23,947 nucleotides of DNA from Myxococcota bacterium (GTDB lineage: Bacteria > Myxococcota > XYA12-FULL-58-9 > JALHOP01). Below, piece by piece: positions 7,529 through 23,947 of the stretch (within the stretch, counting starts at the first letter, position 1; every line of letters begins with the position of its first letter). The DNA is taken from positions 1 through 23,947 of the forward strand of contig JBGGMJ010000051.1 in assembly GCA_041288095.1 (NCBI GenBank), written 5' to 3'. The position numbers and the translations under genes are program-made. The notes under the pieces are model-generated. The model worked only from the letters and a program-made list of their open reading frames with translations, was not told the DNA's origin and did not search any database.

Positions 7529-9946
7529 TCAGCTCCGGAACATCACCACAGTAACCCCGTCGCCACCCTCATGCCGTTCGCCAGGGCGCGCGGTTTCGAC
7601 ATACGGCGAGAGCTTGAGCGTATCGCGGATAGCTTCCTTGAGGGCGCCCGTGCCGTGGCCGTGGACCACGACGCCGGTCGCGGCGCCATTCAGGTACAGC
7701 GCGTCGAGGAACGCCTCGACGTTGCGAATCGCGTCGTCGGCGCGTTGACCGCGGATATCCAGACGTGTCGACGGCTCATCCGCGCTAACCGCCCCGCCGC
7801 GCGCCGACCGCGCCTTCTCGTCACGTGTGCGGCCGCGCAGACCCTCAGCGGACTTCGCGGCCGTACCGCCGGCTTTCACGGGAACGAGGTCCTCGAGCTT
7901 GGCGCGGGTACGCAAGGGCCCGACCAACACCGTCGCCACCTTGCCCTCGATGGCGATGACCTCGCCGTCCTTCCCGAGGCTCGCAACGCGCACCTTGCCG
8001 CCGACCTTGACGGCGCCGGCAACAGCGCGGTCGCCGGCGCGAACCTCGGCGACGCTCTGCTCCCGGGCCGTTTGCGCGGCGAGCTCCTGCGCCTTCTCGC
8101 CGAGCTCGCGCTGTGCCTTCTGCGCCTCCCGCATGTCGGGCGCGGCTTGCAGCTGGGCTATGAGCTTCGCCACTTGCTCGCGGGCGGCATCGATCTCGCC
8201 GGCGAGCTCGGCGCGAGCCTCGGCCTTGGCGTGATCGCGGGCCTTCGCCGCTTGGGCTTCGAGAGTCGCGGCGTCGGCACGCACCCGCTCGGCATCGACA
8301 AGGGCCTGGCGCGCCTTGGCTCTGTCCGCTTCGGCGGACTGCGCCAAATCGTCCAGCTTGGCCAACGCCTGGCTGAGCTGCGAGCCTTCGTGCAAGCGCT
8401 TCCTTGCAACCTCGAGGATCGCGGGCGGCAAGCCAACCTGCGCCGCCACCTCGAGCGCGTTCGACATGCCGGCCGTACCGAGCTGCAACGCATAGGTCGG
8501 GCGCATGGTCGCGGGGTCGAGTCCGACCCGCGCGTTGACGAAGCGATCGTCCGTGACCGCCAGCGCCTTCACTTCCTCGAGGTGCGTGGTGACGAAGGCA
8601 CGCGCTTCCTTGTCGGCGAGGTGGTCGAGCACGGCCGTGGCAATGGCGGCGCCTTCGCGTGGGTCGGTGTCGGCGGCAATCTCGTCGACCAGCACCCAGT
8701 AACCGGCACGCGCCACCTCGATCACGTCCTTCAAGCGCGTCATGTGCGCCGAGAAGCTCGACAAGCCTTGCGCCATGCTCTGAGCGTCGCCGACCACCGA
8801 CAGCACCCCGCGCACGAGCGGCAGGGCCGAGGCGTCGCTCGCGGGGATCGGTAGTCCCGCGCGCAACATCAGCGCGCACAGCCCCGCGGCCGTGATGGTG
8901 ACGGTCTTGCCGCCGGCGTTCGGGCCGGAGACGACCAGCGTCGTTTGCCGATCTCCGAGCACGACGCGGTTCGCGACCACGTCTTTGCCTTGCAGCAAGA
9001 GCAGTGGATGACGCAACCGCTCGAGCACCACCTCGCTCCGCGATGGCGGAACAATGCGTGGTACCGCAGCGTCGAGGTCGTTCGCCAGACGCGCCGCGGC
9101 CTGCACGAAGTCCAGGGATGCGAACGCTTGGGTGGCCGTGCGGATCGCTTCGACTTGCCCGGCGACGTCCTCCGAAAGCTCGTGCAGGACGCGCCTCTCT
9201 TCCTCGGCGGCGAGGGACTCGGCGATCGATAGCTCGTTGCCGAGGCCGATGATCTGGTCGGGCTCGACGAAGATGGTCTGACCGCTCTGCGAGGCGTTGT
9301 GGACGATGCCCGGCACACGCGAGCGGAACGAGGCATTGATGGGCAGCACGTAACGGTCGTTGCGGGTGCTGAAATAGTTGTCGCGCAGGTTCTCGGCGAA
9401 CATCGGGTCGCGCAGGAGCTCGTCGATGCGCGCCTGGATCTGCTGGTGCAGGGCCCGCGCACGCTGGCGGTACATCGCCAAGGCATCGCTCGCCGTGTCG
9501 CGCACCGTACCCGAAGGCTCGAGGGCATCGTCGATGCGCGAGCCTATGGGGCCTAGGTTCGGGACGTTTTGCGCTTCACGCCCGAGGAGCGGCGCCTCCA
9601 TGGCTTGCTGGCGACCGAAGGCACGGACGCGGAGCGCGGCATGAGCGACGCGTGCGACCGCGAGCAGCTCGGTGGCGGCGAGCGGCGCCCCTTTGGAGAC
9701 GCGGTCCACGGCCGGCCGCACATCGTCGACGCCAGCGACCGGGATTTCGAGCTGTTTGCGAAGAATCGTCCGCGCTTCCTCGACACGGGCGAGCGAGGTC
9801 TCGACCTCGCTCTCGGTGCCCAAAAAGCCCAGGGCGCCCGCGGGCTCCCGACCGAGACTGCTTCCACAACGCGCCACCAGGGCTTCGCGAATACGCGGCC
9901 AGCCGAGCTCTTTCAGGGTGGTGTCGTTGACTTGGAAGGAGGTCAT
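7529..9946 (-). CDS. mutS2: Endonuclease MutS2 (ATPase, coiled coil, KOW-like and Smr domains)
   Basis: [17 protein letters not shown], Walker [35 protein letters not shown], and Smr motifs LDIRGQR / [10 protein letters not shown] / EGGDGVT. TTG 9952 is an alternative start. Confidence 0.95.
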
Positions 9947-9997
9947 GGCCAATACGTCTACGTCCTACAACGTGGTCACGTCCGAAAGGAAACGACA

Positions 9998-10618
9998 ATG
10001 GCCTACCCGTTCAAGCTTCCGGAGCTCGGTTACTCCTACGATGCCGTCGAGCCGCACATCGACAGCAAGACGATGGAGATTCATCACACCAAGCACCACA
10101 ACACTTACATCACCAACTTGAACAAAGCGCTCGAGAGCAAGCCCGACCTCCAGAAGATGGAGATCGAGGAGCTCGTCGCGAAGTGCAACAGCCTGCCCGA
10201 CGACGTCAAGACCGTTGTCCGCAATAACGGTGGCGGCCACCACAATCACTCGCTCTTCTGGCAGTGGCTCAAGCCGAACGGCGCCAAGACGCCGACCGGT
10301 AAGCTCGCCGACGCCATCACCAAGAAGTTCGGCGACCTCGAGAAGTTCAAGACCCAGTTCAACGAAGCCGCGACCAAGCGCTTCGGCTCAGGCTGGGCCT
10401 GGCTCGTCGTCGACGGCAAGGGTGAGCTCGAAGTGACCTCGACCGCCAACCAAGACTCACCGCTCATGGACGGCAAGACCCCGGTGCTCGGTCTCGACGT
10501 CTGGGAGCACGCCTACTACCTGAAGTACCGGAACAAGCGCCCGGACTACATCACCGCATTCTGGGGCGCGGTGAACTGGGATACCGCTGCGAAGCTATAC
10601 GACGAAGCGAAGAAGTAA
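9998..10618 (+). CDS. sodA: Superoxide dismutase, Mn-type signature
   Basis: AAAGGA RBS before ATG 9998; [27 protein letters not shown]. The GGGH plus QD pattern is the Mn-type signature. Confidence 0.93.
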
Positions 10619-12963: not shown

Positions 12964-15300
12964 TTGAAGGTATCGAGATCAGAGCTGTTGGCCAGCGAGC
13001 TCAAGGTCGCCCCCCGTCAGGTCGACGCGGTGCTCACCCTCTTCAAAGACGGCGCCACCGTGCCGTTCATCGCCCGTTACCGCAAAGAGGCGACCGGGAA
13101 CCTCGATGAGGTGCAGATCCGGGCTATCCAGGAGCGCAGCGAGTACCTGACGCAGCTCGACGACCGCCGCACCGCGATCGTCGGCTCGGTGCGCGAGCAA
13201 GGAAAGCTCACCCCCGAGCTCGAAGCCAAGCTCATGGCCGCCGACACCAAGGCGGCCCTCGAAGACCTCTACGCGCCCTTCAAGCCCAAGCGACGCACCC
13301 GAGGCACCATGGCCCAAGAAAAGGGCCTCATGCCGCTTGCCGAGCGCATCCTCGCGCAGACCGAGATCGGCCACCCGGCAGCCGAGGCAGCCGCCTACGT
13401 CAGCGCGGAACGGGGTGTGAAGAGCCCCGAGGAAGCCCTCCAGGGCGCCCGCGACATCGCCGCCGAAGTGGTCGCCGACAACTCCGAGATTCGCACCCTC
13501 GTGCGCACCGCCATGGTCGAGCATGGCCTCGTGGTCAGCGAGCCGGTCCCCGAAAAGACCAAGGGTCCCACCAAGTTCGAGCAGTACTACGCCTTCCGCG
13601 AAGCCTTCAAAACCATCCCCTCGCATCGCTTCCTGGCCATCCGCCGCGGTGAGCGCGAAGGTGTGCTCAAGCTGCGCGTCGAGCTCGATAGCGCTCCACT
13701 GGTCGCGCGCATGCACGCCATCATGGGCGTCTCGACTCCGTCCCCCTTCGCCAAGGATCTCGCGCTCGCCATCCAGGACGCCTACGACCGCCTCATCGTC
13801 CCGAGCGTCGAGACCGACGTGCGCGTCGACGTGAAGATGCGCGCCGACCGCGAAGCCGTGGAGGTCTTCTCCACCAACCTGAAGAGCCTGTTGCTCTCGG
13901 CACCGCTCGGCGCCCGCAGCGTCATCGGCATCGATCCGGGCGTTCGTACCGGCTGCAAGTGCGCCGCGGTCGACATGACGGGTAAGTTCCTCGATACCGT
14001 CACCATCTACCCGACGCAGAAGGCCGAGGCCGCCGCGACGGAGCTGGCGGCCTTCGTGGCCAAGCACCAGCCCTACGCCATCGCCGTCGGCAACGGCACG
14101 CACGGGCGCGAGACCGAGACCTTCACGCGCAAGACGCTCCTCGCCGCCAAGATCGAAGGTGTCATCGTGGTCAGCGTCAACGAGTCGGGCGCGAGCGTCT
14201 ACAGCGCCTCTGATGTGGCGCGTGACGAGTTCCCCAATCTCGATCTCACGATACGTGGCGCCATCTCGATCGCACGGCGCTTGCAGGATCCGCTCGCGGA
14301 GCTCGTGAAGATCGATCCGAAAGCCATCGGCGTCGGCCAGTACCAGCACGACGTTCACCAGCCGCTGCTCGCCCGCAAGCTCGACGAGGTCGTCGAGAGC
14401 TGCGTCAACCACGTCGGAGTCGAGCTCAACACCGCGAGCGCCCCGCTCCTCGCGCGTGTGGCTGGTATCGGCCCAGCTCTAGCGAAGAAGATCGTCGCGC
14501 ACCGCGAGGAGCGCGGCGCGTTCAAGACTCGCGCCGGCCTCCACGACGTCGCCGGCCTCGGGCCCCGCGCTTTCGAGCAAGCCGCGGGCTTCCTGCGCGT
14601 CCGCAATAGCGATCACCCACTCGACGACTCGGCGGTGCATCCCGAGCGTTATGAGCTGGTGGCGCGCATCGCAGGCGATCTGGGTGTCGACGTCAAAGTG
14701 CTCGTCGGCAATCGCGAGCTCGCCAAGAACATCGACGTCGAGAAATACGTCGACGACAGCGTCGGCGCCCTGACGTTGAAGGACATCGTCACCGAGCTGA
14801 CCAAGCCGGGCCGCGATCCCCGCGAAACCTTCACGCCGCCCAAGTTCCGCGACGACGTGTTCAGCGTCGAGGATCTGAAGCCCGGCATGACCTTCGAGGG
14901 CGTGGTCACCAACGTCACCGCCTTCGGAGCCTTCGTCGACATCGGTGTCCACCAGGACGGCTTGGTGCACGTGTCGCAGCTCTCGAACGGCTTCGTGAAG
15001 AACCCCGCCGAGGTCGTCAAAGCGGGAGACAAGCTGCAGGTGCGCGTCCTCGAGATCGATCTGCAACGCAAACGCATCTCGCTGTCCGCCAAGAGCGAGC
15101 AGGTCCGCGCCGAGCGACCACCGCGCGAAGAACGCCGGCCGGATTCACGCGGTCAGCAGCGGCAGCAAGGGCGCGGCCGCGATGAAGGCAGGCGCGGTGG
15201 TGGCGGCGGCGGCCGGCAAAGCGACCGCCGCGAGCAACCCAAGCAGCCCGAGAAGCCGAAGTTCTCGAACAACCCGTTCGCGAGCCTGAAGCTGCGCTAG
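12964..15300 (+). CDS. tex: Tex-family RNA-binding transcriptional accessory protein
   Basis: GATVPFIARYRKEATG, GIDPGVRTGCK, RRLQDPLAELVK, GVGQYQHD, HhH motifs, C-terminal S1 domain (FGAFVDIGVHQDGLVH). TTG start uncertain. Confidence 0.95.
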   Translation: MKVSRSELLASELKVAPRQVDAVLTLFKDGATVPFIARYRKEATGNLDEVQIRAIQERSEYLTQLDDRRTAIVGSVREQGKLTPELEAKLMAADTKAALEDLYAPFKPKRRTRGTMAQEKGLMPLAERILAQTEIGHPAAEAAAYVSAERGVKSPEEALQGARDIAAEVVADNSEIRTLVRTAMVEHGLVVSEPVPEKTKGPTKFEQYYAFREAFKTIPSHRFLAIRRGEREGVLKLRVELDSAPLVARMHAIMGVSTPSPFAKDLALAIQDAYDRLIVPSVETDVRVDVKMRADREAVEVFSTNLKSLLLSAPLGARSVIGIDPGVRTGCKCAAVDMTGKFLDTVTIYPTQKAEAAATELAAFVAKHQPYAIAVGNGTHGRETETFTRKTLLAAKIEGVIVVSVNESGASVYSASDVARDEFPNLDLTIRGAISIARRLQDPLAELVKIDPKAIGVGQYQHDVHQPLLARKLDEVVESCVNHVGVELNTASAPLLARVAGIGPALAKKIVAHREERGAFKTRAGLHDVAGLGPRAFEQAAGFLRVRNSDHPLDDSAVHPERYELVARIAGDLGVDVKVLVGNRELAKNIDVEKYVDDSVGALTLKDIVTELTKPGRDPRETFTPPKFRDDVFSVEDLKPGMTFEGVVTNVTAFGAFVDIGVHQDGLVHVSQLSNGFVKNPAEVVKAGDKLQVRVLEIDLQRKRISLSAKSEQVRAERPPREERRPDSRGQQRQQGRGRDEGRRGGGGGGRQSDRREQPKQPEKPKFSNNPFASLKLR

Positions 15301-16055
15301 CTGCTCTGCTGGTTGCTGTCGTCCGTCGCCGACAAGGCGCGGCCGCTGCGTTCGGGCGCTAGCAAGCCGGCGTCGAGCGCGTAGCGCACCAGGTCAGCGC
15401 GGTTCTTCAGGCCAACCTTCTCGGCGACGCGGGCTCGATAGGTCTCGACGGTCTTCACCGAGAGGCCCAAGCTGTCCGCGATCTGCTGGTTGGTGTAGCC
15501 GTGCGCGACGCTGGTCAGCACCTCGCGCTCGCGCTGCGACAAGCGTACGTCACGCCAAGCACCGTCGCGGTCGCCCGCTTTGGGATTGACGATCTCCTCG
15601 AGGCTGCCGGTGCTGGCAAGAGACACGTCGATGTACGACCGCCCCTGGCTCACGGTACGGATCGCCGAGAGCAGCTCGGCATCCGCGGCGCGCTTCACCA
15701 CGAAGCCGGCGCCGCCGGCGGCGAGCACCGAGCGCACGTAGGCGTATTCGTCGTGCATGGTGAGCACCAGCACCCGCGTCCGTGGATAGCGCTCGCGGAT
15801 CACTTCGAGAGCACGGATACCGCCCATCCCGGGCATCGACAGATCGAGCAGGACGATGTCGGGGTCGAGCTCGCCGACCCGGCGAATGGCGTCTTCGCCA
15901 TCGACCGCCTCGCCTACGACCTCCATGTCGCTCTGTGTGTTGATCAACATGCGCAGGCCGCTGCGCAAGATTGCGTGGTCATCAGCCACGAGGATGCGAA
16001 TGCGGGGTGTTACATCTTCGCCGGTCCGCCCGTTGGTAACGTCTACGCCGTTCAT
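15297..16055 (-). CDS. NarL/LuxR-family response regulator
   Basis: ILVADDH, VLLDLSMP (phospho-Asp), LTMH, FVVK; LuxR HTH LSQREREVL...GYTNQQIA...SVKTVETYR. ATGA overlap with the upstream gene. Confidence 0.94.
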   Translation of the reverse strand: MNGVDVTNGRTGEDVTPRIRILVADDHAILRSGLRMLINTQSDMEVVGEAVDGEDAIRRVGELDPDIVLLDLSMPGMGGIRALEVIRERYPRTRVLVLTMHDEYAYVRSVLAAGGAGFVVKRAADAELLSAIRTVSQGRSYIDVSLASTGSLEEIVNPKAGDRDGAWRDVRLSQREREVLTSVAHGYTNQQIADSLGLSVKTVETYRARVAEKVGLKNRADLVRYALDAGLLAPERSGRALSATDDSNQQSS

Positions 16056-17512
16056 TTGAGCCTCGCGTCCGCTTCTCGCGTTAGTCCGAGTTTCTTCATC
16101 TTGCTTTGTAGGGTCGATGGCTTGAGGCCCAGCAGGGCTGCCGCGCCTCGCGCACCGTAGATTCGGCCGTTCGTCAACTTCAACACTTGGGCAATGTGCT
16201 GCCGTTGCACGTCGGCCAGGGTAGGTACATTCGTTTCATCCGCGGAAGCGGACGAGCGCACGTCGAGGATGTCGGCGTCGATCACCGGCTCCTTGGCGAC
16301 GATGGCGGCGCGCTCGAGCACGGTGGCGAGCTCGCGGACATTGCCCGGCCAGCCATAGCGCGCGAGCTTCTTCAAACCGTCGTCGCTGACGCTGAGCGCC
16401 TGGCGACCGGTGCGACGCTCGATGTCGGCCAACAACGCCGCGCACAGATGAGGCAGATCGCGGCTGCGCTCGCGCAACGCTGGGACATTCAAGGTGAAGG
16501 CGACCAGCCGCTCGAAGAGCTCGGCGTCGAAGTGGCCGACACCGACCTCGGCTTCGAGCTCGAAAGCGGCAAGCGAGCTGGCGGCGACCAAACGAACGTC
16601 GGGAGCGGCGTCGAGGGCGCGCAAGAGCCGGCGTTGCAAGACCAAAGGCAGCACGTGGATGCTCGAGAGGTACAAGGTACCGCCGCGAGCGAGATCGACG
16701 CGGCCACGCGAGCCACCACTGCCGAAGAGCTCGCCTTCGCAGTCCTCTTCGCTGCTGCAATCGACGGCGACGAACGGCTCGTTTGCCCGTTTGCTCCAGC
16801 CGTGCACGGCACGCGCGAGGCGTCCCTTGCCGGTGCCGTCCTCGCCGCAGATGAGCACCGGCGTGTCCGCCATCGCGACCTGGCGGGCGCGCGTCACCAA
16901 GCGGCGCATGGGTGAGTCGTTGCTGTCGTCGTGATCGAGGAGCGCGGTGCCGACCAGCTCGCGCTCGAGCAGACGCACGTGCTCGCGGTCACGCTCGTGC
17001 AAACGCGCGAGGCTCACACCGCGCTGTGCGTTGACGATGGCGAGCGCCAAGACCTGTCCGTAGACCTCGACGAGATTGACGATGCTCGGCGCATACGCTT
17101 CGCAGCGCTCGCGGTCGAGCGTCATGACGCCATAGTTGATGTTGCCGGCGCAGAGCGGCACGACCATGCAGGAGTGGCCGGGCGCGAGATCGAGCACGCC
17201 GTCGAACGGATCGCCGTCGCCATGGGCGTGGTCGTCTTCGGAGAAGCCACGAGCGCGGCGCGTTTCGAGCGCCTCGCGGATCGTCGGAAACGCGGCAAGG
17301 TCGAGCCGATGACCGCGCACGGCTTCGCTGGCGAGCTTGCCTCGGGCACAGCGCACGACGAGGTGATTGCCCTCGAGCACGAGCACCGCCGCGAGGTCGT
17401 AAGGCGCGACGCGCTCGATCCAATCCAAGCCACGGCGCAGGAGATCGTCGAGATCACTCTCACCGCGCTCCAACGTGGTCTGCAGCTCAGGCATGGCGTG
17501 CGCAATCGACAT
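16052..17512 (-). CDS. NorR/FhlA-like GAF-AAA+-Fis HTH regulator with degenerate sigma54-activation domain; start may be 17494 or 17518
   Basis: GAF with DPFDG...HSC...TLD; Walker A GEDGTGK; WPGNVREL; FhlA-type HTH GAAALLGLKPSTLQSKMKKLG. GAFTGA absent and Walker B reads LYLSSI. Confidence 0.85.
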   Translation of the reverse strand: MSIAHAMPELQTTLERGESDLDDLLRRGLDWIERVAPYDLAAVLVLEGNHLVVRCARGKLASEAVRGHRLDLAAFPTIREALETRRARGFSEDDHAHGDGDPFDGVLDLAPGHSCMVVPLCAGNINYGVMTLDRERCEAYAPSIVNLVEVYGQVLALAIVNAQRGVSLARLHERDREHVRLLERELVGTALLDHDDSNDSPMRRLVTRARQVAMADTPVLICGEDGTGKGRLARAVHGWSKRANEPFVAVDCSSEEDCEGELFGSGGSRGRVDLARGGTLYLSSIHVLPLVLQRRLLRALDAAPDVRLVAASSLAAFELEAEVGVGHFDAELFERLVAFTLNVPALRERSRDLPHLCAALLADIERRTGRQALSVSDDGLKKLARYGWPGNVRELATVLERAAIVAKEPVIDADILDVRSSASADETNVPTLADVQRQHIAQVLKLTNGRIYGARGAAALLGLKPSTLQSKMKKLGLTREADARLK

Positions 17513-17554
17513 CGACACCCAATTAAAGCCGATCCGGAGAAAAAATCAAGGTGC

Positions 17555-17594
17555 ACACCGAAATACAGGTAGATGAGCACCGGTATATCGGTGT
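17555..17594. promoter_or_regulatory. Candidate operator: 16-bp inverted repeat with 8-bp spacer
   Basis: ACACCGAAATACAGGT (17555-17570) matches the reverse complement of ACCGGTATATCGGTGT (17579-17594) at 14/16; the right arm contains the palindrome CACCG-N6-CGGTG. Confidence 0.65.
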
Positions 17595-17615
17595 CGTTTT
17601 TCCGACTTTCTTCTC

Positions 17616-17644
17616 TTGCACCGTCCCCGTGGTGTAAGCACTAT
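17616..17644 (+). promoter_or_regulatory. Candidate sigma70-type promoter of ahpCD
   Basis: TTGCAC-N17-CACTAT, 53 bp before the ahpC ATG; imperfect -10. Confidence 0.45.
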
Positions 17645-17697
17645 GTGCCTCCACTTTTGTTTGCTCGCCGGATCAGGCGGGCACGGAGATACGAACG

Positions 17698-18234
17698 ATG
17701 TTGACCGTTGGTGACAAGCTCCCGAAGTTCAAGATGCTGGCGACCGTTAGCCTCGATAAGGGCAAGGAGTTCGCCGAGATGACCGAAAAGAGCCACGAAG
17801 GCAAATGGCTCGTCCTCTTCTACTGGCCCAAGGATTTCACCTTCATCTGCCCCACCGAGATCGCCGAATTCGGCCGCATGAACAAGGACTTCAAGGCGCG
17901 TGACGCGCAGGTCTTAGGCGCCTCGACCGACAGCGAGTTCGTGCACCTCGCCTGGCGCAACAACCACAAGGATCTGAAGGACCTGCCCTTCCCGATGCTC
18001 GCCGACATCAAGCGCGAGCTCGCTCAGGACCTCGGCATCCTCCACAAGTCGGAGGGCGTCGCCTTGCGCGCCACCTTCATCGTCGACCCCGAGGGCACGA
18101 TCCGTTGGGTCAGCGTCAACGACCTTTCGGTTGGTCGTAACGTCAAGGAAGTCATCCGCACCCTCGACGGCTTGCAGACCGACGAGCTCTGCCCCTGCAA
18201 CTGGGAGAAGGGTCAGGCGACCCTCAACCCATGA
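17698..18234 (+). CDS. ahpC: Alkyl hydroperoxide reductase C (AhpD-partnered type)
   Basis: WPKDFTFICPTE and C-terminal ELCPCNW; GGAGA RBS. Confidence 0.96.
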   Translation: MLTVGDKLPKFKMLATVSLDKGKEFAEMTEKSHEGKWLVLFYWPKDFTFICPTEIAEFGRMNKDFKARDAQVLGASTDSEFVHLAWRNNHKDLKDLPFPMLADIKRELAQDLGILHKSEGVALRATFIVDPEGTIRWVSVNDLSVGRNVKEVIRTLDGLQTDELCPCNWEKGQATLNP

Positions 18235-18752
18235 GCAACATCGAAGCACTCCGCGACGCGCTGCCCGACGCCGCGGCGGACATCCGGCTGAACCTGCAAT
18301 CGGTGCTCGACTCCTCGTCGCTCAACGATGCGCAGCGCTGGATGGTCGCCGTGGCGAGCGCGCTCGCGGCGCGCAACCCCAAGTTGCGCGAGGCCGTCCT
18401 GGCCGATGCGTCCACGAAAGTGTCCACCGAGATCCTCGAGGACGCCAAGGCGGCCGCGGCGCTCATGGCCATGAACAACGTCTACTATCGTTTCCGTCAT
18501 TTCATGGAGACGAAAGAGGTCTACAAGACGCTGCGCGCCGGGTTGCGCATGAACCGCATCGCCAAGCCGCTGTCGAACAAGATCGACTTCGAGCTGGCCT
18601 GTCTCGCGGTGAGCGCTATCAACGGTTGCGAAGCCTGCGTGCGCAGCCACGAAGAGGTGGTCATCAAGGGCGGTCTCACCGAAGAGAACGTCAACGACGC
18701 GGTGCGCATCGCGGCGACGATGCACGCGGCGGCTCAAGCCCTGGAGCTGTGA
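18231..18752 (+). CDS. ahpD: Alkyl hydroperoxide reductase D
   Basis: AAALMAMNNVYYRF, LRMN, SAINGCEAC..SHE; ATGA overlap with ahpC. Confidence 0.96.
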   Translation: MSNIEALRDALPDAAADIRLNLQSVLDSSSLNDAQRWMVAVASALAARNPKLREAVLADASTKVSTEILEDAKAAAALMAMNNVYYRFRHFMETKEVYKTLRAGLRMNRIAKPLSNKIDFELACLAVSAINGCEACVRSHEEVVIKGGLTEENVNDAVRIAATMHAAAQALEL

Positions 18753-21004: not shown

Positions 21005-21859
21005 GTGCCGACCACCGCGCCGCGTCAGACCCGTTGTGAGAGTTGCGCTCGCGTCTTCGACACCAGCCCCTACAACACCGGCGCGGCGATTTCGTGTCAC
21101 TGCGGGGCCACCATCGTGGTCCGGGACATCACGCCCCACGACAGCCTGGTCATTCGCTGCTCGTCCTGTGGCGGCTCCCGGCCAACCAAGGCCGACGCCT
21201 GCGGCTTCTGCGGCGCCTCATTCACCTTGCGTGACAAGCAGCTCACCGGCCTTTGCTCCGGCTGCGGCGCCCGCGCCAGCGCCACCGACATCTACTGCCG
21301 CGCTTGCGGCGACACCTTGGTCTCTCCCGAGCAGGCGGCCCACCCCGGCGAGAAGAGCTGCCCGGTCTGCGCGGACCATCCGGCTCTGCACCACCGAGAG
21401 CTGCAAGACGTGGCGCTGCTCGAGTGTGTCCACTGCGGCGGAGTGTGGCTCGACCGTCATGCGTTCGGCGCGCTGGCAAGTAGAGCGCGGGAGCATGCAC
21501 GGCTGGAGAGCGCGCACAACCCCAAGATCCCGTCGAACGTGCGCCCGCAAGCCGGGCCGGCATACCGCCGCTGCATCGAGTGTGACGCCGTGATGCAACG
21601 CAAGAACTACGGTCGCAAAAGCGGAGTCATCGTCGACATCTGCGCCAAGCACGGCATGTGGTTCGACCTGCACGAGCTCGAGGAGGTCCTCGCCTGGCTA
21701 CGCGGGGGTGGCGTCGAGGTCAAAGATCCACCACCGGCTCACCGCTCGGAGAACATCACCAAGATGGTGAGCAGCCAGACGCCCCAGCCCAGCGGCGACG
21801 GCATCTTGAGCGTCGGCGACTTGATCGTCGACATCCTGCACTCCTTCTTCTTCCGCTAG
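21005..21859 (+). CDS. Multi-zinc-ribbon protein (double-zinc-ribbon-like plus two zf-TFIIB-like domains)
   Basis: CESC, CHC, CSSC, CGFC, CSGC, CRAC, CPVC, CVHCGGVWLD, CIEC, CAKHGMWFD..EL. Confidence 0.8.
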   Translation: MPTTAPRQTRCESCARVFDTSPYNTGAAISCHCGATIVVRDITPHDSLVIRCSSCGGSRPTKADACGFCGASFTLRDKQLTGLCSGCGARASATDIYCRACGDTLVSPEQAAHPGEKSCPVCADHPALHHRELQDVALLECVHCGGVWLDRHAFGALASRAREHARLESAHNPKIPSNVRPQAGPAYRRCIECDAVMQRKNYGRKSGVIVDICAKHGMWFDLHELEEVLAWLRGGGVEVKDPPPAHRSENITKMVSSQTPQPSGDGILSVGDLIVDILHSFFFR

Positions 21860-23238
21860 CGCGCCTCGGGCTCGACCTCCGCGGGCGTCGAAAGCCCCCA
21901 AGCCTCGAGCTTGCGGTAGAGCGTGCGCCGCTCGATGCCGAGCACCCGCGCCGTCGCCGCTTTGTTGCCATGAAGAGCCGCCAGCACCTTCTCGACGTAG
22001 CGGCGCTCCATGACGTCGAGGCTCACAAGCTCGGCATCGCTGACCGGCACGTTGTGGCCCGCCCGTGGGTGCGCGAGCCTCGGCGGCAAGTCGTCGACGC
22101 CGATCTGGTCGTAGCTCGTCATGATCACGGCGTGCTCCATACAATGCACGAGCTCACGCACGTTCCCCGGCCAGTCGTAAGCGAGCAGCCTCTCGGCGGC
22201 GGCCTTCGACAAGCCTTTCACGTCTTTGTTCTGGGCGCCGGCGAAGCGCAACACCGCGTTGGCGGCAATGGCGAGGATGTCCTCGGCCCCGCGCAAGCGC
22301 AGCGGCGGCAGCGCGATCTCGACCACGGCGATGCGGAAATAGAGGTCGTCGCGGAACTGCTTGGCCGCGATCCGCTCTTCCAAATCGCGGTTGGTGGCGC
22401 AGACGAAGCGCACGTCGATCGGAATCTCCTGTGAGGAGCCGACCGGCCGCACTTTGCGCTCCTGGAGAACACGCAGGAGCTTCGGTTGCAGCTCGATGGC
22501 CATGTCACCGATCTCGTCGAGCAGGACGGTGCCGCCCTGGGCTTCGCGGAAGAGCCCCAAGCGGGCATCGCGCGCATCGGTGAAGGCGCCGCGCACGTGA
22601 CCAAAGAGCTCGCTCTCGAGCAGATGTGGAGGCATGGCGGCGCAGTTCACCGCGAGGAAAGGTCGATCCTTGCGGCCGCTATTGTCGTGGATGGCGCGCG
22701 CGACCACCTCCTTGCCGGTGCCGCTCTCACCCGAGATGAGCACTGACGCCGGCGAGTCGGCCACCCGTCCAACGGCCTCGAGGACGCGCCGCATCGCCGC
22801 GCTCTTGGCGACCAGCGAATGTTCGATACGCGCCTCGCTCGCGACGCGGCGCAAGCGCTGCACCTCCGCCTGCAGCTCGTGATGACGAACCGCGCGCTCG
22901 AGCGCGAAGGCGATGGTGTCGAGGCTCGCGGGCTTCGACAGGAAATCATAGGCCCCGGCGCGTAGGGCGGCGACCGCCGCGTCGAGCGTGCCGAACCCGG
23001 TGAGCAAGATGACGGGCAGGTCGGGCCGGCGGTCCACGATGTCGGCGCAGAGCGCGAGGCCGTCGACCTTGGGCATGCGCACGTCGCAGAGCACCGCCGC
23101 GAACTCGGTCTCCGCCATGGCGTCCAAGGCGTCCGCCGCCGTCGCTACCCAGCGAGGCTCGAAGCCCTTTGACGGCAAGCTCCGCTCCAGCGTACGTCCG
23201 AAATCCTTGTCGTCGTCGACCAACAGAATGCGCTTCAT
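21856..23238 (-). CDS. NtrC-family sigma54-dependent response regulator
   Basis: ATG 23238 overlaps the kinase stop (ATGA); ILLVDDD, LCDVRMP, GESGTGKE, ELFGHVRGAFTDA, LLDEIG, WPGNVREL, Fis HTH. Confidence 0.95.
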   Translation of the reverse strand: MKRILLVDDDKDFGRTLERSLPSKGFEPRWVATAADALDAMAETEFAAVLCDVRMPKVDGLALCADIVDRRPDLPVILLTGFGTLDAAVAALRAGAYDFLSKPASLDTIAFALERAVRHHELQAEVQRLRRVASEARIEHSLVAKSAAMRRVLEAVGRVADSPASVLISGESGTGKEVVARAIHDNSGRKDRPFLAVNCAAMPPHLLESELFGHVRGAFTDARDARLGLFREAQGGTVLLDEIGDMAIELQPKLLRVLQERKVRPVGSSQEIPIDVRFVCATNRDLEERIAAKQFRDDLYFRIAVVEIALPPLRLRGAEDILAIAANAVLRFAGAQNKDVKGLSKAAAERLLAYDWPGNVRELVHCMEHAVIMTSYDQIGVDDLPPRLAHPRAGHNVPVSDAELVSLDVMERRYVEKVLAALHGNKAATARVLGIERRTLYRKLEAWGLSTPAEVEPEAR

Positions 23239-23947
23239 GCCGCGCTCCCGCTTTCCCACCCCGCGCGTGGTAGCGACAGGGTGAAGACGCTGCCGCTCTC
23301 GTCCACCGTGAGCTCGATGGTGCCGTTGTGCGCGGTAGCGATCTCGTATGCGATCGATAGCCCGAGGCCGGTCCCCTCGCCGACGTCTTTCGTCGTGAAG
23401 AAGGGCTCGAAGACGGCCGAGCGGAGGTCTGCCGGCACGCCAGGACCGTGATCGCGGACGGCGAGGTGGAGCTGACCAGCGTCGACGCGCCCCTCGAGAC
23501 GTACCTCGGAGCCACGCGGCGAGGCATCGATGGCGTTCAGAACCAGATTCGCGAGGGCCTGAGACAGCGCCAGGCCGTCCGCCTCGCACGACATCGGCTC
23601 GTCAGGCAGCGACTGAACCAGCGAAACGCCTTTGCTCTGGGCGAGTGCTTCGAGCATGCCGGTGGTCGAGCGGGTAATCTCGCGCAAGTCGACGACTGCT
23701 TTGGCAAGATTGGGGCGTCGCGAGAAGGCGAGGAGCGTCGACACCAATTTGGTCATGCGGTCGCTGGCGAGGTGAATCGCGTCGACCGATTCGGTACCGA
23801 GCTGTGACATGCCTGCCTCGTTCCGCAGGAGGTTCGCGTTCACCACGACCACGTTCAGCGGCGTGCCGAGCTCGTGCGCCATGCCCGAAGCGAGCCGGCC
23901 AACCGTGGAGAGACGGTCGCTGTGGTGGAGCTTGCGCAGGGCTTCCT
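23235..23947 (-). CDS. Sensor histidine kinase, 5'-truncated by the window
   Basis: Frame open to the edge (DRLSTVGRLASGMAHELGTPL H-box); NLVLNAIDA, DHGPG, FEPFFTTK, GTGLGL. Confidence 0.95.
   Translation of the reverse strand, partial: EALRKLHHSDRLSTVGRLASGMAHELGTPLNVVVVNANLLRNEAGMSQLGTESVDAIHLASDRMTKLVSTLLAFSRRPNLAKAVVDLREITRSTTGMLEALAQSKGVSLVQSLPDEPMSCEADGLALSQALANLVLNAIDASPRGSEVRLEGRVDAGQLHLAVRDHGPGVPADLRSAVFEPFFTTKDVGEGTGLGLSIAYEIATAHNGTIELTVDESGSVFTLSLPRAGWESGSAA

Follow-up and report, generated by a model that had tools for sequence, protein, structure and literature searches.

Which regulator stands opposite the ahpC-ahpD pair of a Myxococcota bacterium, and how can it act now that its AAA+ motor has degenerated? 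The question is raised by contig JBGGMJ010000051.1 of assembly GCA_041288095.1 (GTDB lineage Myxococcota; XYA12-FULL-58-9; JALHOP01), whose positions 1 to 23,947 were analyzed as a whole and are hereafter called the window. An initial annotation, made from the DNA letters alone, had proposed a new stress-regulatory system in which a repurposed NorR-like sensor with a dead motor controls ahpC-ahpD independently of sigma54. Our analysis assigns the regulator by its sequence to the PexR family, so that the system as such is already known; what appears to be new is the variant, a PexR stripped of its sigma54 determinants together with the sigma54 promoter of its target, which we designate PexR* (gene pexR*). 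We consider it very probable that PexR* is derived from PexR and independent of sigma54, and we give a somewhat better than even chance to the narrower proposal that it works in a repressor-only mode. The features on which the argument is built are as follows.

16052 to 17518, minus strand: pexR*, a PexR-family GAF-AAA+-HTH (helix-turn-helix) regulator with a degenerate AAA+ domain (Pfam domains and tree)
17024 to 17461, minus strand: GAF sensor domain of PexR*, residues about 20–165, holding H97, H115, C117, and D135
16484 to 16918, minus strand: degenerate AAA+ core, residues 201–345 (alignments A1 and A2, motif table, AlphaFold2 model)
16088 to 16222, minus strand: Fis-type HTH_8 DNA-binding domain, residues 433–477 (Pfam, 26.9 bits)
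17698 to 18234, plus strand: ahpC, a 2-Cys peroxiredoxin (PF00578, 127 bits; TIGR03137, 151.9 bits, below its cut-off of 272)
18231 to 18752, plus strand: ahpD, CMD family, CxxC present, overlapping ahpC by 4 nt (TIGR00777, 186.7 bits, cut-off 191.95; PF02627)

The open reading frame (ORF) of pexR* encodes 488 aa when read from a GTG and 486 aa from the ATG at 17512, the latter being the length of the database copy P0001 and of the related locus L001; the real start is probably this ATG. Pfam matches to GAF (GAF_3/GAF_2, residues 21–162), Sigma54_activat (201–343, 83.6 bits), AAA_lid_14, and HTH_8 (433–477) reproduce the architecture of the PexR family—GAF, sigma54-type AAA+, and Fis-type HTH—and contain no LysR domain. 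Together with the ORF coordinates and the NCBIfam matches, they bear out the earlier description of a GAF-AAA+-HTH gene divergent from ahpC-ahpD.

The regulator–ahpCD pair corresponds to PexR of Myxococcus xanthus, a NorR-related GAF-containing bacterial enhancer-binding protein (bEBP) encoded divergently from ahpCD (Bastida-Martinez et al., Nucleic Acids Res 2025, PMC12754779), and the supposition of a new regulatory system was therefore not sustained. According to the published account, M. xanthus PexR binds CACCG-n6-CGGTG repeats, as established by chromatin immunoprecipitation, electrophoretic mobility shift assays, and mutagenesis; in resting cells a sigmaA-type ahpC promoter overlapped by these repeats is repressed about 20-fold, and under hydrogen peroxide (H2O2) PexR activates the sigma54 promoters of ahpC and katB (PMC12754779). 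Its GAF residues H102, H120, C122, and D140 bind Zn/Fe, and H2O2 releases the metal (PMC12754779). The equivalents in PexR* are H97, H115, C117, and D135, and these His/His/Cys/Asp columns are invariant in alignment A1, which comprises the window protein and 17 relatives, and in alignment A3, including all seven degenerate sequences. More broadly, the Myxococcus homolog L025, numbered from an ATG start, carries H102, D108, D111, H120, C122, D140, and C144, and PexR* has the same residues at 97, 103, 106, 115, 117, 135, and 139. Escherichia coli NorR is 30% identical to PexR*, and its D96, D99, C113, and D131, which we take to be its iron ligands, fall in invariant columns (alignment A2). NorR (NF003451) is also the best NCBIfam match of PexR*, at 205.8 bits, without reaching the equivalog cut-off of 476. 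"NorR-like" thus stands as a statement of kinship, given this best match and the invariant columns, but falls well short of the score that defines NorR itself. The idea of a repurposed NorR goes one step too far back, the immediate ancestor apparently being a PexR with its sigma54 dependence intact and with repression of a sigmaA ahpC promoter already in place; by this comparison the variant looks like the loss of one PexR arm, not a new invention.

The phyletic distribution of the degenerate form is narrow. In a tree of 51 rows, with the truncated L014 left out and NorR as the outgroup, the seven window-type sequences form one clade (Shimodaira–Hasegawa approximate likelihood-ratio test, SH-aLRT, 100) on a long stem of 0.72, nested inside the PexR group, which is itself set apart from L055/L077 and NorR. 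These sequences come from all four genomes of the genus that includes the window (g1) and from three metagenomic relatives, and none of 18 genomes of other families in the same order carries the type. PexR* is 50–58% identical to the PexR homologs of the phylum: in a 401-genome sample, 117 genomes encode a homolog at E <= 1e-80, and outside the genus none exceeds 58% identity. A protein search recovered six degenerate-type clusters at 90% identity, the window's own included (P0001–P0006; 59–100% identity, 486–495 aa), alongside thousands of intact relatives of about 510–530 aa and 50–55% identity. In a library of 50%-identity clusters the degenerate clade has no representative of its own, the best match being 55% identical. 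A metagenome scan covering at least 57 loci yielded no confirmed window-type member among the matches listed, although it contributed a second degenerate type, L094; four of the metagenome loci end at a contig edge before the AAA+ motifs, so that their type is not assignable.

The AAA+ domain is where PexR* departs from this family. A 9-residue stretch carrying the GAFTGA motif is deleted (junction near 16718–16723; alignment A1 and a motif table of 41 locus-encoded regulators), and a second deletion removes 12 residues, FEPVGSDRTVKV in relatives (junction 16600/16601; alignment A1). We take the two missing segments to be the L1 loop and the pre-sensor-I (L2) insertion, the sigma54-contacting loops of PspF and NtrC1. 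The Walker B DE pair has become SS (16661–16666), its close relatives showing SS, AA, TG, or AS at this position, and the first Arg of FRxDL (FRxDLyyRL) is replaced by Asp (D331), where close relatives have Asp or another non-Arg residue. Walker A reads GEDGTGKG (16823–16846) against GETGTGKE in relatives, with the core GxxGxGK retained. Determinants of a bEBP—Walker B DE, GAFTGA, and one of the conserved arginines—are accordingly absent from PexR* at the level of sequence. In HMMER alignments to NifA (9qq6) and VpsR (7v2b), its two gaps fall at the GAFTGA stretch and at a later segment of the AAA+ core; VpsR is the second-best sequence match of PexR* in the PDB and shows similar gaps. An AlphaFold2 model (mean predicted local distance difference test score 77; 80–94 over residues 210–340) retains a compact AAA+ core, and a Foldseek search with this model returned Brucella NtrX as the best match, followed by ZraR, FlrC, and NtrC1, with VpsR at rank 12. 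Both deletions, the SS Walker B, and the Asp for Arg thus confirm the dead AAA+ motor that the initial annotation had proposed. With no GAFTGA and a non-consensus Walker B, PexR* by its motifs fits the definition of an atypical enhancer-binding protein (EBP) as formulated in the text of PMC6158489. The HTH sequence (GRIYG..GAAALLGLKPSTLQSKMKKLG), in turn, is near-identical to that of intact PexR homologs in alignment A1. The label currently attached to these genes, "sigma 54-interacting transcriptional regulator", is probably wrong for the degenerate clade.

The loss in the protein is mirrored upstream of ahpC. The 150 nt before ahpC were scored at 56 loci against TGGCACG-N4-TTGCW, with GG-N10-GC required and the antisense strand as control; by the form of the regulator's motif, the loci with a match at thresholds of 9 and 8 out of 12 were distributed as follows.

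Canonical GAF[TS]GA/GAYTGA, 30 loci: sense 21 at >=9/12 and 26 at >=8; antisense 0 at >=9 and 1 at >=8
Window type, 4 loci: sense 0 at >=9, with no GG-N10-GC at all, and 0 at >=8; antisense 0
DS type (L094), 1 locus: sense 0 at >=9 and 0 at >=8; antisense 0
GAFAGA type, 10 loci: sense 0 at >=9 and 1 at >=8; antisense 0 at >=9 and 1 at >=8
G[SG]FTGA, 7 loci: sense 1 at >=9 and 2 at >=8; antisense 0
Truncated or unclear, 4 loci: sense 3 at >=9 and 4 at >=8; antisense 1 at >=9 and 2 at >=8

In canonical loci the sigma54 element lies mostly 40–110 nt from the ahpC ATG. At all four genus loci GG-N10-GC is absent from both strands of the 150 nt before ahpC, in agreement with what had been noted earlier for the window, where the sole GG-N10-GC in 17440–17700 falls inside the pexR* coding region. 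Protein and promoter have therefore lost their sigma54 features jointly, a pattern across related clades and not a statistical test, and the sigma54-independence suggested by the initial annotation gains support from both sides. The genome encodes rpoN (218.8 bits) and 33 other bEBP-like genes, which makes the loss of sigma54 coupling specific to pexR*; because none of the 33 matches extends over the GAF domain, pexR* is the only PexR gene of the genome. As a separate observation, the G[SG]FTGA loci L005, L006, L007, and L012 carry a conserved TGGCCCGATTCTCGATA about 110–125 nt before the ahpC ATG, which is −24-like with GA instead of GC at −12 and may be a variant sigma54 promoter.

The AAA+ remnant of PexR* is under purifying selection and is maintained rather than decaying. 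Among four species of the genus, separated by synonymous divergence (dS) of 0.6–1.5, the ratio of nonsynonymous to synonymous substitution rates (dN/dS) of pexR* is 0.07–0.13 overall; by region it is 0.03–0.10 in the GAF domain, 0.05–0.13 in the AAA+ core, 0.11–0.28 in the lid, and 0.03–0.11 in the HTH, and the reading frame is intact in all four.

The link to the peroxidase genes is conserved as well. Within a genome survey of 79 loci, linkage was counted over the 41 with at least 42% identity: a divergent ahpC, usually followed by ahpD, adjoins the regulator in 33 of the 41, including all four degenerate-type loci, so that the linkage on which the initial annotation had staked its proposal holds. 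The eight loci without it are five from Polyangium, L015, L017, and L036, the contig of the last beginning 170 nt upstream of the gene. In the metagenome scan, ahpC stands alongside in 31 of at least 57 loci among the matches listed, many contigs being too short to judge.

The 179-nt spacer between pexR* and ahpC contains palindromes, three of which are predicted PexR boxes arranged in tandem and conserved in the other three genus loci (L001–L003).

17556 to 17571, no strand: PexR box B1, CACCGAAATACAGGTA, with two mismatches to CACCG-N6-CGGTG; conserved in L001–L003
17578 to 17593, no strand: PexR box B2, CACCGGTATATCGGTG, a perfect CACCG-N6-CGGTG and the sole one in the 23.9-kb window
17619 to 17634, no strand: PexR box B3, CACCGTCCCCGTGGTG, with one mismatch; it overlaps TTGCAC and the spacer of the candidate promoter P2

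The perfect box B2 substantiates the inverted repeat that had been noticed between the divergent genes, and B3 keeps the form CACCG-N6-(T/A)GGTG in all four genus loci. Across intact and degenerate loci alike, the spacers hold two or three tandem copies of the palindrome CACCGA(A/T)AT(A/T)TCGGTG. The centers of B1 and B2 lie 22 nt apart and those of B2 and B3 41 nt, the corresponding distances in the intact loci L005 and L010 being 22–23 and then 17–19 nt. Genome-wide, the GC-rich genome contains 67 perfect CACCG-N6-CGGTG matches, among which only the window array is tandem with an A/T-rich spacer. Four further places were checked for other regulon sites; three lie inside ORFs, and no second tandem array is among them. 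The fourth, a single copy at 23338–23353 of contig C95 (CACCGTGATTTCGGTG), is the only other intergenic, A/T-spaced PexR-like box of the genome and lies 48 nt upstream of a 290-aa ORF without a Pfam match and near an Hsp70 gene.

Candidate promoters in the spacer were read by eye and by comparison of the four genus loci.

17522 to 17549, minus strand: candidate pexR* promoter, −35 TTGATT (17549–17544), 16 nt, −10 TTTAAT (17527–17522)
17562 to 17589, plus strand: P1, candidate ahpC promoter, AATACA (17562–17567), 16 nt, TATATC (17584–17589), overlapping B1 and B2
17616 to 17644, plus strand: P2, candidate ahpC promoter, TTGCAC (17616–17621), 17 nt, CACTAT (17639–17644), overlapping B3
17616 to 17649, plus strand: genus-conserved 34-nt block with a GGTGTAAGCAnTrTGTGCC footprint (17631–17649; four-locus comparison by eye)

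A consensus scan gave no hits in 17400–17800, so that the sigma70-like promoter of the initial annotation is reduced to these weaker, genus-conserved candidates. The candidate pexR* promoter was missed by the scan because position 2 of its −10 is T; its −10 stops 9 nt short of the ATG at 17512, which would yield a near-leaderless mRNA, and its spacing is unchanged in L001–L003; B1 lies 6 nt upstream of its −35. The M. xanthus pexR may likewise be leaderless (PMC12754779). On the ahpC side, P1 occupies the position homologous to the M. xanthus sigmaA ahpC promoter, and the conserved block is a candidate for either the sigma70-type promoter P2 or the site of a second regulator. Whichever of P1 and P2 is real, at least one box overlaps it, which is the geometry of the M. 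xanthus repressor arm. Two further structures were seen in the spacer. A hairpin, GCTCGCC/GGCGGGC at 17663–17682, just precedes the ahpC ribosome-binding site, and since L001 and L002 have different but also hairpin-capable sequence there, the leader may have a conserved structure; a 23-nt inverted repeat with 74% complementarity (17531–17553 / 17652–17674) brackets the operator region and may be due to chance. Rfam has no family in the window.

With the parts that work with sigma54 lost, PexR* probably acts only as a repressor. Under the mechanism that we propose, metal-loaded PexR* would bind the three boxes as dimers and oligomerize through its ATPase-dead AAA+ scaffold; the AAA+ remnant would then serve as an oligomerization and allosteric scaffold that possibly still binds nucleotide. 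Bound PexR* would occlude a weak sigma70/sigmaA-type ahpCD promoter while sitting next to its own. H2O2 would oxidize or empty the GAF metal site and thereby alter oligomer geometry or DNA occupancy, so that ahpCD and the operon of pexR* with its downstream response regulator would be derepressed by peroxide. Of the two functions of M. xanthus PexR, PexR* would thus have retained only repression. Consistent with this, B1 and B2 lie across the site that corresponds to the M. xanthus sigmaA promoter, and B3 covers the −35 and spacer of P2. We also count in its favor that the best structural match, NtrX, is an atypical EBP reported as a repressor (PMC6158489).

Several points weigh against repression as the sole mode. 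Neither P1 nor P2 scores high enough to be called by the consensus scan, which makes any placement of the boxes against the actual ahpC promoter provisional; were P2 real, B1 and B2 would lie near −88 and −66, where activators typically bind. M. xanthus PexR can bind DNA without its GAF domain, and the published text of PMC12754779 describes no H2O2-induced dissociation, so a pure repressor would have to couple signal to DNA in a way that goes beyond what is described for the family. Among the atypical EBPs listed in PMC6158489, VpsR and four of the five others are sigma70 activators. Finally, the tightly coupled response regulator, 94–95% conserved, has no role in the model.

In the strongest competitor, peroxide would turn PexR* into an activator of sigma70 RNA polymerase (RNAP) comparable to VpsR, TyrR, and PhhR; it would occupy the three boxes and recruit or remodel the holoenzyme at the ahpC promoter once the GAF metal site is oxidized. 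VpsR, likewise without GAFTGA and with a non-consensus Walker B, stimulates sigma70-RNAP while bound immediately ahead of the −35, and sigma70 activation is the rule in four of the five other atypical EBPs (PMC6158489). The rank of VpsR as second-best PDB sequence match with similar gaps, the location of B1 and B2 at about −88 and −66 of P2, and the weakness of the candidate promoters, as activator-dependent promoters often are, all fit this view. However, the center of B3 falls about 24 nt before the inferred P2 start, inside the promoter spacer, where activators other than those of the MerR type are rare; the ancestral sigmaA-related activity of PexR is repression (PMC12754779); and no activation surface can be named on PexR*. 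We therefore regard activation by PexR* as doubtful.

A second alternative gives the response regulator a part of its own.

15297 to 16055, minus strand: NarL/GerE-type response regulator, 252 aa, with REC and GerE domains (Pfam)

Its ATG overlaps the pexR* TGA by 4 nt (ATGA; AAATGAAC), with GAGG 5 nt upstream; this overlap and the REC/GerE domains vindicate the earlier claim of translational coupling to a NarL-type regulator. The receiver residues D25, D26, D71, T99, and K121 are intact, and no histidine-kinase domain was found in the 18 window ORFs of at least 200 aa that were scanned against Pfam. The genome holds no close paralog, the protein being its own sole match at E <= 1e-20. The nearest orthologs (52–57% identity) occur in all six genomes of a PexR-less sister family in the same order, and each of these (L158–L163, in G016, G018, G021, G020, G008, and G013) has a CMD-family gene 300–500 nt downstream, encoding a protein of about 220 aa that has no homolog in the window genome. 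The spacers between these sister-family genes are long and carry a conserved TAATTTCCCCGATACC-like motif and G-rich repeats, without an Rfam match.

In the resulting two-protein circuit, activation of a sigma70 promoter would fall to the response regulator, perhaps acting at GGTGTAAGCAnTrTGTGCC, and PexR* would be a peroxide-sensing repressor or gatekeeper, or would set the level of the regulator through autoregulation of the operon. The ATGA overlap and an arrangement that is the same in L001–L003, and hence in all four genus genomes, speak for it, as does the conservation of the response regulator, 94–95% identical in the two sister genomes aligned while PexR* is 87–91% identical between species. 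Its basis is the repeated linkage to the CMD/AhpD superfamily, the orthologs lying just upstream of such a gene in six of six sister-family genomes; the 19-nt conserved block beside B3 is also longer than a −10 element needs to be. Against this, neither a binding site nor a kinase is known for the response regulator, the sister-family CMD protein is not an AhpD ortholog (E = 0.11), no motif common to the sister-family spacers and the window spacer was found by eye, and operon membership by itself is weak evidence. We judge this circuit improbable. A more elaborate version, in which the ATPase-dead PexR* scaffold would be a peroxide-controlled docking or gating platform for the NarL-type regulator—the two proteins forming a sigma70 switch at ahpCD in place of the sigma54 arm, with the response-regulator lineage as a general regulator of CMD/AhpD-superfamily peroxidase genes in the order—is a long shot.

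A third alternative retains the reading of the initial annotation, namely that the sensor answers mainly to nitric oxide (NO), peroxynitrite, or metal status, with AhpCD as a peroxynitrite reductase. The invariance of the NorR columns D96, D99, C113, and D131 across the PexR family is compatible with it, and the text of PMC12754779 leaves open both whether PexR also senses NO and whether Fe or Zn is the physiological metal. The signal demonstrated for the family is nonetheless peroxide: the only inducers tested are H2O2 and tert-butyl hydroperoxide, paraquat being without effect (PMC12754779). Moreover, the target genes code for peroxidases, PexR* stays at 205.8 against the NorR equivalog cut-off of 476, and the Pfam scan of 18 window ORFs revealed neither norVW nor any other NO-detoxifying gene. 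NO or metal as the main signal is therefore very improbable. That PexR* is still tied to sigma54, through an unrecognized promoter or as the DNA-bound partner of an intact bEBP, or that it is a decaying relic, is barely credible: rpoN and 33 bEBP-like genes are present, one of them 4 kb away (21856–23589), and some PexR clades have non-canonical −12 elements, but GG-N10-GC is missing from the 150 nt before ahpC at four of four loci, both AAA+ segments and the Walker B pair are gone, and dN/dS of 0.05–0.13 with intact frames in four species speaks against a relic.

The wider genome gives this locus its physiological setting. The genome, 90% complete, yielded neither a catalase (PF00199) nor a close OxyR, the best OxyR match having 24.6% identity and 64 bits; two Fur-family genes are encoded elsewhere, and the bacterium may rely mainly on AhpCD to scavenge peroxide. 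The flanking genes encode Tex, an adenylate cyclase, CorA, an Fe/Mn superoxide dismutase, MutS2, and a ribonucleotide reductase. The dismutase ORF (9569–10618, plus strand) has about 147 residues before its superoxide dismutase domains that have no Pfam match, reflecting either a mis-start or a real extension. An intact REC-AAA+-HTH EBP is encoded 4 kb from pexR* (21856–23589, minus strand; Sigma54_activat, 233 bits), showing that canonical bEBPs are maintained in the same genome.

Our survey also encountered a second altered PexR lineage, represented by 11 loci from metagenome-assembled genomes (L026–L031, L033, L034, L036, L038, and L042) that carry GAFAGA, GALPGV, GAFAGV, or GAFASA, with Walker A reading GEPGSGKE but the Walker B DE kept. 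Its sister in the tree (SH-aLRT 100) is a clade comprising P0035, P0086, and L094, in which the loop is partly deleted and DE is changed to DG or DS. The GAFAGA-clade loci and L094 have in common a CTGG-rich stretch and a AATCAATGATTTG-like element, the latter presumably resembling the IHF consensus. Two database labels look inconsistent with our results: L011, labeled "Comamonas sp. KCTC 72670", pairs with the Myxococcus locus L025 in both tree and spacer, and L003, labeled "uncultured Bdellovibrionales", matches, at 91% identity, a genome of the genus that contains the window, whose L001 and L002 are labeled Myxococcota.

How, then, does the window form compare with known systems? PexR was described at the end of 2025 as a third peroxide-sensing route besides OxyR and PerR, in which a metal-binding GAF domain is coupled to a sigma54 ATPase. 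PexR* shares with the M. xanthus protein, as far as its published description extends, the architecture, the His/His/Cys/Asp sensor, the three repeats, the divergent ahpC-ahpD, and a likely leaderless gene. Unlike it, PexR* lacks GAFTGA, the 12-residue segment, the Walker B DE (SS instead), and the first FRxDL Arg, and its ahpC lacks a sigma54 promoter; the spacer is compact at 179 nt, with the third box about two helical turns further downstream, the operon includes a NarL-type regulator, and the 90%-complete genome yielded no catalase. The main text of PMC12754779 makes no mention of degenerate forms and, like the sequence logo there, describes the homologs with Walker A/B and GAFTGA, the latter term appearing once, in a figure legend, and TyrR not at all; among the titles listed in the literature searches, none described a degenerate PexR. 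With E. coli NorR, PexR* shares the domain order and the GAF columns D96, D99, C113, and D131, and NorR too has three enhancer sites (PMC12754779), yet the two differ in their 30% identity, their DNA motif, the lack of norVW among the window ORFs scanned, and the strict sigma54 dependence of NorR. OxyR and PerR stand in the same position divergent from ahpC and presumably do the same physiological job, but the LysR and Fur families to which they belong are unrelated to PexR*.

The locus thus offers a natural separation of function, with sensor, HTH, and operator kept and the sigma54 arm gone from protein and promoter alike, and it provides a handle on whether GAF-based peroxide sensing controls DNA occupancy or oligomer geometry without ATP hydrolysis. 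The atypical EBPs VpsR, NtrX, TyrR, PhhR, HupR, and HsfA are known to carry REC, ACT, or PAS sensory domains; PexR*, unlike them, has a metal-binding GAF peroxide sensor and is an ortholog of none of them. What it has in common with these six is a sigma54-activator-type AAA+ domain with no functional GAFTGA and a non-consensus Walker B, and atypical EBPs of this kind are described as acting at sigma70 promoters, either activating or repressing (PMC6158489). Because the intact, sigma54-dependent sisters of PexR* are still extant, the transition can be traced clade by clade, giving a handle on how an EBP turns into an atypical sigma70 regulator; and with intermediate states in the sister clades, GAFAGA in one and a partial loop deletion with DE changed to DS or DG in the other, the PexR family could become a worked example of that transition.

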